Origin: Spirochaetota bacterium
GTDB taxonomy: Bacteria > Spirochaetota > Brevinematia > DTOW01
NCBI GenBank assembly: GCA_025061835.1
Contig: JANXAC010000002.1
Location: forward strand, 37,185 to 101,184
Direction: 5' to 3'
DNA: 64,000 nucleotides
Shown here: piece by piece, positions 23,333 through 53,071 of the stretch
Position numbering within the stretch: the stretch's first letter is position 1
Layout: every line of letters begins with the position of its first letter
The notes under the pieces: model-generated
Told to the model about the DNA's origin: nothing
Database searches by the model: none
What the model saw: only the letters and a program-made list of their open reading frames with translations
Made by a program: the position numbers and the translations under genes

Positions 23333-23421
23333 GGAGGGGTGGCCGAGCGGACGAAGGCGACAGTCTTGAAAACTGTAGTACCCTCTATAGGGTACCGGGG
23401 GTTCGAATCCCTCCCCCTCCG
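23333..23421 (+). tRNA. tRNA-Ser (anticodon UGA), class II with long variable arm
   Basis: Hand-folded cloverleaf: acceptor GGAGGGG/CCCCTCC, D-stem GCC/GGC, anticodon stem ACAGT/ACTGT with loop CTTGAAA (anticodon TGA at 23367-23369), 7-bp variable-arm stem GTACCCT/AGGGTAC, T-stem GGGGG/CCCTC with TTCGAAT loop, discriminator G; CCA not encoded. Confidence 0.85.
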
Positions 23422-47139: not shown

Positions 47140-49185
47140 CTACCTGTTATTCTCACCGCTTAATACCTTTACCTGACTATTGAACCAGTCTTGTTTAGAT
47201 TTGCTTTCTCTCAACACTTGCTGTAGTTTTCCAAACTTCCTCTCAAGTGAAACTCTGTAGTCTTCAAGTCTGTCCTGAAACTTTGTATAAAGGTCCTTGT
47301 TTGACTTTATAATGTTATCAATCTGTTTTTTCTTGTTTGCTATGACACCACCTGCTCTAGTGTATTCATCACAAACCACAGTTATATTGTAAGCAAATCC
47401 TGTGTCAACAACCTTGTCTCCGTTGGTATCATAACTAAACACATCACTTACAGCCATTATGTTTTCAATAACGACACTAACAAGCTTGTCATTATCAATC
47501 GTTAAAATACCTCTCCTAACATACTCCCATAAATCAGACTCAAAATCCAGTTTGGTTGATATGTTCTTTGTATATATTCCTATGTGGTAAAGTAGTCTAA
47601 TATTAGTTTGTCTGGTCTGGTAAGGTTGCATCGCAAACATTCTTAACTTATCCTTCAACCTTATAAATTCCATATCTGTAGCAAATGATCCTTCCTCTTT
47701 CTCCTCATCTGGCTTTTCATAGAGTTGTCTCCTATCTACCATCGGCTTGGTTATCTTGGAAAGGTAAATCATAACATCGTTGTATTTTTCAATCAGATTT
47801 GATATACTGTTGGTTATTGACTTGTAATCGTAATCTACTTTAGTAGTAACCTCCTTACTAGGGTTCTCTCCAACTACTTTCAAAGTTCCATTAATTATAT
47901 CCTTCAAATCATTCTCCTCCCTCTCAATCTTAACACCATTTACATAGACAACTGCATTCTCTGCTCTGGATATGTAGTTTTTAGGTTCGTATTCCGAAAG
48001 TCTTCTAACCTCTTCAACTTTGTCCTTGATTACTATTCTATAGAAAGTCATTCTTGATAGGTCGTTGTTATTTCTCAAAACAAACTTCTCAACTTCTTTC
48101 CCTTCAAACATTGAAAGAGTGGTGATTTTGGAAGTTTCTGAAGGAAGTATTCTTAATTCATACTTCGTTCCATCTACTAAATGTATGACTATAAATACGA
48201 AATCATTGGTCGTGTATTCCTTGAGTATGTCAAAGGTTGTTATAGGTGTTCCACCTTTTACTTCAACGTTGCTAACTTTAACACTTTCCATAACTCTAAT
48301 CTCAAGTTCTTTTGGTTTAGGAATAGGTTGTTGAGTGAATAGGTTTGATACTTCTAAAATAGTATTTTTGGATACCACATACCTAATATCTCTGGTTATT
48401 TCTTCCTTATCTTTGAGTGTTAGTGAAGGTAGCGAGGTAAATTGTGATAGTATGTTCAACTCGTTTGGTGGAGATGTTATAACCTTATCCCTTGTAAGTA
48501 ATCCAATTCTCACAAGTTCAGACAAGTCTCCATTTATAATAACCTTAGCACTTTTGCCTGTCTTCTTACCTTCTATTCTTAAAACTTCGTTGTTAGCATC
48601 AATCTTAATAACAGAAGCAGAAACTATTTGAGATGCTTTTTCGTTAATAAGTTTGGCAAGGTCTCTCAATTTACCGCCACCAAAGTCAATCTCTACTTCC
48701 TTATCAAGTAGTGATATTTTTATTTTGAAAGGCTTAAGTTCGGTATCCAAAGGCAGAGGGTCTGATACGAATACATCTGGTTTTGCCATCCTTTCAACTC
48801 TTACTCTCATATCCCCAACTTCAGCTCCTCTATTCGGTAAAACTTGAACTATACTATCATCACTTGAATATCCAACCCTGTTCTGAAACGGAGACCTGTA
48901 GTCGTAAAGAGACTTTGCTATGTCCCTCAACTCCCTAAGGTTAAGCTCTACGAAATTTATAATTGCTTTTCTTATAGTCTGGTTACTTATCTCTTGCTGA
49001 TACTTTTCTCCCTTGCTACTCTCTGCTTCAACGAGCTTTTCAACAATTTCCTCCGTATTTATACCACTTCCAGTCAATTTATCTATTCCAAACTTCTTCT
49101 TGCTACTCTGCGAGTATCCGTTGTAAACAAAGAACAAGAATACAGTTCCTATTATGAATAACAATAACTTCTTATCCACACTCAT
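47140..49185 (-). CDS. FliD-like (flagellar filament cap, hook-associated protein 2 family) protein with signal-peptide-like N-terminus (tentative)
   Basis: KLTGSGINTEEIVEKLVEAE resembles the FliD N-terminal motif (ITGLASGMDIDDIVSKLMQAE type); C-terminal coiled-coil region FGKLQQVL...FNSQVKVL resembles FliD_C. The 25-residue hydrophobic N-terminus is atypical. Confidence 0.4.
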   Translation of the reverse strand: MSVDKKLLLFIIGTVFLFFVYNGYSQSSKKKFGIDKLTGSGINTEEIVEKLVEAESSKGEKYQQEISNQTIRKAIINFVELNLRELRDIAKSLYDYRSPFQNRVGYSSDDSIVQVLPNRGAEVGDMRVRVERMAKPDVFVSDPLPLDTELKPFKIKISLLDKEVEIDFGGGKLRDLAKLINEKASQIVSASVIKIDANNEVLRIEGKKTGKSAKVIINGDLSELVRIGLLTRDKVITSPPNELNILSQFTSLPSLTLKDKEEITRDIRYVVSKNTILEVSNLFTQQPIPKPKELEIRVMESVKVSNVEVKGGTPITTFDILKEYTTNDFVFIVIHLVDGTKYELRILPSETSKITTLSMFEGKEVEKFVLRNNNDLSRMTFYRIVIKDKVEEVRRLSEYEPKNYISRAENAVVYVNGVKIEREENDLKDIINGTLKVVGENPSKEVTTKVDYDYKSITNSISNLIEKYNDVMIYLSKITKPMVDRRQLYEKPDEEKEEGSFATDMEFIRLKDKLRMFAMQPYQTRQTNIRLLYHIGIYTKNISTKLDFESDLWEYVRRGILTIDNDKLVSVVIENIMAVSDVFSYDTNGDKVVDTGFAYNITVVCDEYTRAGGVIANKKKQIDNIIKSNKDLYTKFQDRLEDYRVSLERKFGKLQQVLRESKSKQDWFNSQVKVLSGENNR

Positions 49186-52175: not shown

Positions 52176-52424
52176 ACATTAAGATTATAATTAAACACAG
52201 ATATAAATCTGAATTTGCTCAAATGTGGCTCAATAAAGTCCGAGATCTTATTAGGAATTTTACAACTACTGGGAAAGTAAATAACAGCAAAATTAGAGAA
52301 AACATAAATCTAAAATATTTAAGGATTAAGTGAAGGTCATCTTTTGTGAGTTTTTAAACTTCACTGAATGCAAATGTGGAAAATAAATCTCACTTTGATT
52401 AAAATATCATCGTAAGAAAATAAT

Positions 52425-52913
52425 ATGCCTACACTTCTAGATAGAGAAAAAGTTAAGAATAAGATCAGGAGAGTTCTTAAGGATTTTGATGAAGATAGTG
52501 TTGAAGAGATGGTTGAACTTATATACGACGACATTTACTTAGGTTTTAAATCAGAAATAGACTCCAAAGCAGATAGAAGTGAAATAAAAGAGGAATTACA
52601 AGGAATAAGGTCTGATATAAAGGTCCTTTCAGAAACTGTGAAGATTGGGTTTGAAAACATAAATAAGAGATTTGAAGATAATAACAAAAGGTTTGAAGAC
52701 ATTAACAAAAGATTTGAAGATATTAACAAAAGGTTTGAAGATATCAACAAAAGGTTTGAAGATATCAACAGAAGGATAGGTTTCCTACAGTGGTTAATGG
52801 TATTCCTTTTTGGGATATTTTCAGGAATAGTGACATTCATAAGTTCAAGCATTATGAACCCAAAGTTTGATGAGATAATAAAACTGCTACAGGAAATCTC
52901 AAAGAAATTATAA
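52425..52913 (+). CDS. coiled-coil repeat protein with C-terminal transmembrane anchor
   Basis: Five tandem NKRFEDI heptads, then hydrophobic segment LQWLMVFLFGIFSGIVTFI; 162 aa. Confidence 0.6.
   Translation: MPTLLDREKVKNKIRRVLKDFDEDSVEEMVELIYDDIYLGFKSEIDSKADRSEIKEELQGIRSDIKVLSETVKIGFENINKRFEDNNKRFEDINKRFEDINKRFEDINKRFEDINRRIGFLQWLMVFLFGIFSGIVTFISSSIMNPKFDEIIKLLQEISKKL
52662..52775 (+). repeat. tandem direct repeat, 21-bp unit x5 (AACAAAAGGTTTGAAGATATY), in-frame within the CDS
   Basis: Read directly: units at 52662, 52683, 52704, 52725, 52746 with only synonymous or near-synonymous differences, plus a degenerate sixth unit. Confidence 0.85.
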
Positions 52914-53071
52914 TAGCACTGTGTCAAAGTAATAAATCCTAAAAAATTTACAAAAATACTTAATTGTGAATGTCAAGAGTAAAATTTAGATAATATAACT
53001 CCTTACCTACTTGACTAGAATCTTGGAATTTTATTATATTTATAACGGCTTTTATGTAATGGAGGTTAATT

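Follow-up and report, generated by a model that had tools for sequence, protein, structure and literature searches.

The stretch of DNA analyzed here (the window) comprises 64,000 nucleotides of contig JANXAC010000002.1 from the Spirochaetota bacterium assembly GCA_025061835.1, and all coordinates below are positions within it. We focused our attention on an open reading frame (ORF) on the forward strand, at 52425..52913, which encodes 162 amino acids (aa) followed by a TAA stop codon, and whose product is a predicted tail-anchored membrane protein carrying an array of heptad repeats. The entry in the ORF list is a 100% match to P0001, the window protein being identical to RMJ37_01720, an NCBI protein from a metagenome-assembled genome (MAG) labelled 'Spirochaetia bacterium'. 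The same start codon is also used in the related loci L001, L002 and L013, and a six-frame motif search of the window returned no paralogues of the gene.

Tandem Repeats Finder reported a period-21 array at 52648-52775 (6.1 copies, 85% matches, score 172), and a repeat search of the window returned six copies at an exact spacing of 21 nt in the array. At a lag of 21 nt, self-identity reaches 91 of 105 positions at 52650, the best value elsewhere in the 64-kb window being 51 (mean 31, standard deviation 5.4). The array holds five tandem 21-bp units on the + strand (52662..52766, aa 80-114), which start at 52662, 52683, 52704, 52725 and 52746, in each case at codon position 1. In-frame translation gives NKRFEDN for unit 1 and NKRFEDI for each of the four that follow; the former carries a second-position change (AAT, Asn, for ATT, Ile), whereas units 2-5 vary at third codon positions only. 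A first-pass annotation of the sequence had described five NKRFEDI repeats that differ solely at wobble positions: the array is real and the description holds for units 2-5, but unit 1 departs from it both in its peptide and in the codon position that changed. In terms of the heptad register, F occupies position a, I position d, N position e, K position f and R position g. The same register extends over a degenerate first heptad, KIGFENI (52641-52661, +), and a degenerate last heptad, NRRIGFL (52767..52787, +, aa 115-121), which leads it into the membrane segment, so that the stalk counts seven in-register heptads, five of the form NKRFED[N/I] and two degenerate ones.

The fold of the protein was predicted with AlphaFold2 (AF2), run on a single chain with a 37-sequence alignment (mean predicted local distance difference test score, pLDDT, 85.7). 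Helices were placed at aa 7-20, 23-48, 51-144 and 146-161, the third of which is continuous over 94 residues with pLDDT above 90. The first two predicted helices make up an N-terminal head (aa 1-48; 52425..52568, +), which is lineage-restricted and evolves faster than the remaining protein. The helix break at aa 49-50 falls in the segment IDSKAD (aa 45-50; 52557..52574, +), located between head and stalk and tentatively beta-layer-like. A non-repetitive stalk neck follows (aa 51-79; 52575..52661, +), which includes a conserved IKVLSETVKIGFENI segment, common to P0004, P0024, P0089 and L013, and the KIGFENI heptad, with a 4-residue register shift (one 11-residue step) immediately before F76. 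Beyond the repeats, a transmembrane (TM) helix is predicted at approximately aa 117-141 (52773..52847, +), where the Kyte-Doolittle profile peaks (19-residue maximum of 2.1 at aa 118-136) and the AF2 helix is uninterrupted up to residue 144; W123 lies near its start, and this Trp is invariant in family alignment A2. After an Asn-Pro break, the chain ends in a predicted amphipathic helix (KFDEIIKLLQEISKKL, aa 146-161; 52860..52907, +; period ~3.45), which is kept in P0002 and P0122, the latter ending in INPKFEQIISLLQELLKKLP, while several orthologues, including L013 and P0121, have no C-terminal tail.

Hydrophobicity in the repeat follows a period of 3.5, F occupying a and I occupying d, and the a/d seam runs on into the membrane segment through I117, L120, M124 and L127. 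Together with the continuous AF2 helix over aa 51-144 and the Kyte-Doolittle maximum, this periodicity supports the earlier description of a membrane-anchored coiled coil. That description had also placed the repeats, as a coiled-coil stalk, ahead of a C-terminal TM helix; the order is correct, but the stalk comprises seven heptads and a 21-residue tail lies beyond the TM helix. As the protein has no N-terminal signal sequence and is rich in charge over its first 116 residues (25 K+R, 30 D+E), we infer that head and stalk are cytoplasmic and that the protein is tail-anchored.

With the copies of Pfam and NCBIfam used here, no threshold was reached by the window protein and 37 relatives, and a Foldseek search of the AF2 model against the PDB returned no match with E <5. 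Influenza HA2 chains were the best result of a PDB sequence search (E ~6e-4), aligned over the heptads only, and homology to HA2 was rejected as generic trimeric coiled-coil similarity over the heptads. Sub-threshold matches to KxDL, EzrA, HA2, syntaxin, SMC and others in Pfam, NCBIfam and PADLOC were also rejected, being generic coiled-coil matches attributable to compositional noise. For some relatives, PF27742 ('CTXL_M') appeared as a precomputed match, in each case a 'faint' one.

Copy-number variation and constraint

The nearest orthologue of the window protein, P0002 (155 aa), is encoded at a syntenic position in two independent Logan assemblies (L001 and L002). Its DNA is ~95% identical to that of the window gene, and the sole difference in length is a clean 21-bp in-frame gap in the array, P0002 having four units and the window protein five. 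Each allele was recovered more than once, the five-unit form (P0001) in the NCBI MAG and in Logan, and the four-unit form (P0002) in SRR7039830 and SRR7039829. The gap falls at units 4 and 5 (52725..52766, +), which are 100% identical to each other; this is the site of the latest gain or loss, one of the pair being absent from the orthologue. With a period of 21 bp, units in frame and a copy number that differs between alleles, the array is a coding, in-frame tandem-repeat length polymorphism (variable number tandem repeat, VNTR). The suggestion of the first-pass annotation that repeat number could vary between strains is directly supported by a clean 21-bp indel seen in two samples, and the contrary outcome, an identical count in all relatives, was looked for and not observed.

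Differences in length are far larger among more distant orthologues. A phmmer search with the head alone against 1.84 billion representative proteins (E <= 1e-3) returned no match beyond three clusters, so that the head region (52425-52661, aa 1-79) is extremely restricted, in contrast to the stalk motif with its hundreds of matching clusters. The orthogroup of six is made up of these three head-search clusters together with L013 and P0054. Protein-guided scans recovered L012-L017, of which only L013 is orthologous by its head, and exact-DNA scans for the conserved repeat-to-transmembrane junction, run over metagenome and genome collections, returned 0 matches. In five of the six orthologues the head-to-neck spacing is constant, with 40 residues between the conserved YDD motif and the GFE motif. 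Measured from GF to the membrane-proximal Trp, the stalk spans 31, 41, 48, 55, 64 and 88 residues, in agreement with the earlier proposal that copy number sets stalk length, as orthologues with a common head have stalks of 31-88 residues. In the 211-aa orthologue P0122, the neck segment is duplicated internally, '...LAETMKLGFEM' and '...LADAMKLGFEM' lying 25 residues apart, and stalks may therefore also grow through larger duplications, beyond heptad slippage. Moreover, among the 120 best database matches we found 62 close pairs (>=85% identical), 40 of which differ in length by internal indels of 7n residues only and 13 of which are indel-free; the fraction of 40/62 is an overestimate, since variants of equal length are merged by the clustering of the database at 90% identity. 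Overall, the interpretation of the first-pass annotation, a length-variable membrane-anchored coiled coil, is supported.

To what extent the similarity between units reflects recent events was evaluated against a codon-usage null, for which 28 long window ORFs were used. Under this null, a pair of independently coded NKRFEDI units is expected to differ at only 3.4 of 21 nt, so that a conserved peptide together with biased codon choice already accounts for ~84% DNA identity. The observed pairwise average among units 2-5 is 1.67 nt (P ~0.0125), and an identical adjacent pair such as units 4 and 5 would arise by codon choice alone with P ~0.03, which points to a recent duplication for units 4 and 5 only. 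Compared position by position with their counterparts in L001, units 1-3 show, respectively, identity, one difference and identity, with the indel at units 4 and 5. As units 1-3 match the orthologous units, no homogenisation since the split is detectable, and the array is old and kept by selection on the peptide. The comparison thus suggests one recent gain or loss in an array whose remainder is old. Of the recent expansion or concerted evolution proposed by the earlier annotation, the identical pair at units 4 and 5 agrees with the former, but units 1-3 have not been homogenised and the peptide is old.

Selection is unevenly distributed along the gene. Against the orthologue in L001, the ratio of nonsynonymous to synonymous differences (pN/pS) is 0.21 for the whole gene; the head has pN 0.058 and pS 0.124, the repeat pN 0 and pS 0.21, and the TM segment with the tail pN 0.009 and pS 0.142. 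On these values, the repeat, the TM segment and the tail are under strong purifying selection and the head is far less constrained; the repeat is the most constrained part of the gene and no sloppy linker.

The KRFED heptad family and known stalk proteins

At least 577 database clusters match at E <= 1e-3, and a conserved heptad, [N/D][K/R]RFE[D/A][I/M/V], is found in hundreds of bacterial and archaeal proteins, the latter including a class from Bathyarchaeia that carries the KRFED heptads. In 928 heptads taken from the best 120 matches, R occupies g in 99%, F is at a, E is at b in 83%, D at c in 74%, I, M or V at d, K or R at f in 87%, and e is N in 71%, D in 23% and Glu in 4%, a logo that is partly circular because the matches were retrieved through the motif itself. 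Successive RF pairs are spaced by 7 residues 774 times and by 11 residues 102 times, both of which are coiled-coil compatible. Units of 11 residues (DKRFEELLHYV, NKRFEELKSYS) stand amid the heptads like regular stutters in, e.g., P0012, P0019, P0043, P0068 and P0122, and P0054 consists mostly of 11-residue units (KRFEEQTQMFN). No paper was retrieved when the full-text literature was queried with the repeat peptide (as NKRFEDI and KRFEDINKRFED, among others).

The module is found in combination with six or more unrelated N-terminal regions. One class of the family, which includes P0019, has a DUF1640-like head together with a beta-layer motif of the form ATK[E/D]D. P0035, a soluble nuclease from 'Candidatus Hydrothermales', has N-terminal heptads ahead of DUF3782 (E 2.5e-18) and PDDEXK_10 (E 2.2e-12); P0035 and P0039 have 10-11 N-terminal [N/D][K/R]RFE[D/E][I/V/M] heptads and represent two versions exactly one heptad apart. 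A second architecture consists of a signal peptide or TM helix, KRFED repeats, a TM helix and a C-terminal domain of ~50 residues with the pattern 'WDRRT(I/L)I...LRELAK.D..L..(V/I)L+.(F/Y).LL', for which no Pfam match was found. It is shared by P0005, P0006, P0021, P0025, P0033, P0041 and others, several pairs of which differ by 7 or 14 residues, and in these proteins the stalk would be periplasmic.

Two families of known stalk proteins invite comparison. The coiled-coil stalks of PD-(D/E)XK nucleases have been filed as DUF3782 (Hartmann et al. 2016; PMC4786415), and the coiled coil of a nuclease-less relative, Tcar0761 (PDB 5APZ), was crystallised as a trimer in fusion with GCN4-N16V adaptors (PMC4786415). 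In these proteins, as in the window protein, near-perfect short tandem repeats form a long stalk; however, Tcar0761 repeats a unit of 9 residues, MATKDDIAN, which gives rise to alpha/beta coiled coils, whereas the units of the window protein are canonical heptads. Unlike the DUF3782 nucleases, the window protein is membrane-anchored and without a nuclease domain, and a Pfam search found neither DUF3782 (PF12644) nor PDDEXK_10 (PF07788) in it. The second family comprises the prokaryotic and mitochondrial DUF1640 membrane proteins, in which the stalk opens with a beta-layer motif, [aliphatic]-A-T-K-x-[D/E] (PMC4786415). DUF1640/CCDC90-like proteins (PF07798: MCUR1, CCDC90B, Put6/Put7) have the same arrangement of head, coiled-coil stalk and single C-terminal TM helix (PMC7519068, PMC4786415), but the stalk of the window protein is a near-perfect tandem heptad array and its head is not detectably related. 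The window protein is filed here as one that works like DUF1640/DUF3782-type stalk proteins, and membership is not claimed.

Other systems can be likened to the window protein by description. Braun's lipoprotein Lpp is a membrane-attached trimeric coiled coil in which length, given by the heptad count, sets a distance; it is periplasmic and lipid-anchored, and its length is fixed within a species, whereas the rod of the window protein is predicted to be cytoplasmic, is TM-anchored and varies naturally in length. The Bdr proteins of Borrelia have 11-residue KID-type repeats and are encoded by plasmid- or prophage-borne multicopy genes. Accounts attributed to Zuckert in 1999 and Roberts in 2000 reportedly describe a central Bdr peptide repeat that varies in copy number between paralogues and a C-terminal hydrophobic anchor. 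In contrast, the gene studied here is single-copy in the window and chromosomal-looking, and it lies amid housekeeping genes. The Bdr proteins are spirochaete proteins associated with the inner membrane, and their function is described as unknown (PMC10016077).

A possible role for the stalk

The interpretation that we favor, and hold to be reasonably probable, is that the protein would act as a rigid, probably trimeric, tail-anchored spacer that keeps its rapidly evolving head, which is specific to the lineage, at an adjustable distance from the inner membrane. Head and stalk would reside in the cytoplasm, with the tail of ~20 residues outside, and the stalks would assemble in parallel into a homo-oligomeric coiled coil, for which a trimer is most likely. 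Trimerisation is suggested by heptads that read R(g)-F(a)-x-x-I(d)-N(e), similar to the RhxxhE trimerisation motif (Arg in g, Glu in e, and hydrophobic side chains in a and d; Kammerer 2005, via PMC5940361), and by the occurrence of the same heptads in the stalk of a DUF3782/PD-(D/E)XK nuclease, a group in which the GCN4-fused coiled coil of Tcar0761 crystallised as a trimer. Units may be gained and lost through replication slippage or unequal recombination between the 21-bp units; since each such event would preserve both reading frame and heptad register, it would shift the head-to-membrane distance by ~1.04 nm (7 x 0.148 nm) and leave the head unrotated. In such a way, the rigid spacer may set an evolutionarily tunable distance of the head from the inner membrane.

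A number of observations weigh against this interpretation. Regarding the trimer, R(g), F(a) and I/M/V(d) fit RhxxhE, but position e is N/D instead of Glu, and AF2 was run on a single chain. Conservation of all seven heptad positions goes beyond the needs of a passive spacer, and the broad spread of stalk lengths in the orthologues speaks against a precise length being critical. Moreover, no conserved operon partner was found in the contexts of P0037, P0007, P0054, P0010 and P0004, each of which differs from the others. As for the variation itself, the share of close pairs with heptad-multiple indels is inflated by the clustering of the database, and short-read assemblies may miscount repeats. 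The last point leads to the alternative that the difference between five and four units is an artefact, the short tandem repeat having been collapsed or expanded in short-read metagenome assemblies. All the sequences do come from metagenome assemblies, and the array with its flanks (105-147 bp) is near read length; nevertheless, each allele was seen in two independent contigs or samples, 7n indels occur in 40 independent close pairs, the stalk lengths of the orthologues are very different, and reads can be placed because the units are distinguishable at wobble positions, all of which makes an artefact very improbable. Equally remote, in our assessment, is a stalk that is a monomeric single alpha-helix (SAH) domain, stabilized by i to i+4 salt bridges and forming no oligomeric coiled coil. 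Each unit of seven does contain four charged residues (K, R, E, D), and AF2 gives a straight, isolated helix at high confidence, although it could not show oligomers because only one chain was modelled. SAH domains have no continuous hydrophobic seam, whereas here F is invariant at a, I/M/V is near-invariant at d, and the continuous seam with period 3.5 stays in register into the TM helix.

The constraint on the repeat could also be read differently, namely as the mark of a sequence-specific module in which KRFED heptads mediate lateral rod assembly or bind a periodic partner or ions, copy number setting valency. This possibility, which we regard as rather unlikely but as the main alternative, draws on the conservation of all seven positions in the 928 heptads, including the exposed b, c and f, on the repeat being the slowest-evolving part of the gene (no nonsynonymous change against a pS of 0.21), and on its combination with six or more unrelated heads, to either side of the membrane, and with a soluble nuclease. 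However, the conservation statistics are biased by retrieval through the motif, there is no conserved partner gene, and the mixture of 7- and 11-residue units and the wide range of lengths fit a structural rod; in addition, a module of this kind is compatible with a spacer. Going one step further, the heptad might be a distinct, ancient and undescribed building block of Bacteria and Archaea, selected at all seven positions and grafted onto many unrelated heads, a proposal that is speculative and that we would not expect to hold. If true, it would imply a sequence-specific role, e.g., in a polar Arg-Asn/Asp belt of the oligomer, in lateral rod packing or in contacts with a periodic partner, and repeat slippage would be a general means of tuning length or valency across tail-anchored, periplasmic and nuclease proteins.

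Family assignments offer two further alternatives. That the window protein is a divergent true member of DUF1640 (CCDC90-like), working as a membrane scaffold like its mitochondrial relatives, seems unlikely to us, even though it has the same overall architecture, relatives with KRFED stalks carry ATK[E/D]D, the UniRef name of P0064 is 'DUF1640 domain-containing', and IDSKAD coincides with the AF2 helix break. The window protein itself has no match to PF07798, and one relative, P0019, scores 21.8 bits (E 1.8e-4), below the cut-off of 33.5. The head profiles A4 and A5, which between them cover the window type and the DUF1640-like type, show no detectable relationship (hhalign probability 17.5%), and PDB profile searches were non-significant, with E 0.097 for 6h9l (from the other head class) and E 0.26 for 5apt (from the window head class). 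Furthermore, IDSKAD is not conserved, S47 being Leu in the closest orthologue, P0002, and the motif being absent from L013, P0054 and P0121. Finally, the protein could be an XhlA-type phage or prophage lysis accessory ('hemolysin') acting on membrane integrity, since XhlA-type proteins, like the window protein, have a coiled coil directly followed by a C-terminal TM helix. In PHROG, positions 9-72/76 of phrog_1193 ('hemolysin') align with aa 77-145 (E 7.2e-6), phrog_2990, whose function is unassigned, matches at E 4e-6, and NCBIfam NF048001 'GTA head formation protein' matches weakly, with 21.1 bits where the cut-off is 50. However, the PHROG matches are confined to the repeat and TM segment and are composition-biased, no Pfam XhlA match was obtained for the window protein or among the top families of 37 relatives, and the 75-residue head is absent from proteins of XhlA size. 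The gene is, moreover, syntenic and under purifying selection in relatives, and its neighbors are argS, htpX, ispD, asd, an ftsX-like gene and fliD, while holin, endolysin and phage genes are absent, so that a lysis function is hardly credible.

Irrespective of the function of the head, the array is an ordinary repeat polymorphism in an unstudied, widespread protein family, the host being a spirochaete-like organism from a hot spring, and the finding resolves no long-standing question. What the window gene does offer is a clean natural case of a rod changing its length in register-preserving steps of ~1 nm. The KRFED stalk marks a large bacterial and archaeal family, many members of which come from thermophiles and which, where tested, connects to DUF1640 (MCUR1-like) membrane proteins and to DUF3782 nuclease stalks. 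Such proteins could be of use as a natural series of length variants for tail-anchored stalks, and as regular coiled-coil modules for protein design.

Genomic surroundings

In the window and in L001, the genes for FliD, an FtsX-like (FtsX/MacB-like) protein and ArgS lie on one strand, and the repeat gene and the genes for HtpX (M48), IspD and Asd on the other; adjacency to htpX is confined to the nearest relatives. The divergent intergenic region between argS (-) and the repeat gene (+), at 52176..52424, is highly conserved in the alignment with L001. It contains weak sigma-70-like matches (e.g., at 52377-52405) and a weak ribosome-binding site for the repeat gene, and a promoter scan against shuffled controls gave no excess (8 versus 5.6 +/- 3.0). 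On the other side, a 158-bp spacer (52914-53071) separates the repeat gene from htpX; it carries a promoter-like TTGACT-18-TATATT at 53011-53040, and htpX has a strong GGAGG ribosome-binding site. No terminator-like hairpin was found 3' of the repeat gene in the terminator scan, the scans being within chance. A defence or mobile-element association was considered and rejected, as no such context is present and the neighbors are housekeeping genes.

An ORF of 130 aa with LLLISSN repeats runs antisense to the gene (52535..52927, -), and was rejected as a gene, being a by-product of the codon composition of the repeat. The antisense frame uses the same third-codon positions as the sense frame of the repeat gene; in most homologous loci it is uninterrupted across the repeat, but in none does it extend over the full gene.

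Genes of motility lie near several family members. In the window (47140-49185, -) and in L001, fliD is located two genes upstream, and in L009 it is directly divergent from P0054; P0007 is ~2 kb from a cheR-cheB-cheA cluster, and P0010 ~4 kb from flagellar rod genes. Besides the window, the flagellar or chemotaxis loci concerned are L009 1886-4015, L006 8067-12429 and L010 39-944. This proximity could be a coincidence in motile spirochaete-like genomes. Elsewhere in the window, a tRNA-Ser (anticodon TGA) at 23333-23421 (+) is the sole tRNA of the 64 kb and also its sole Rfam match.

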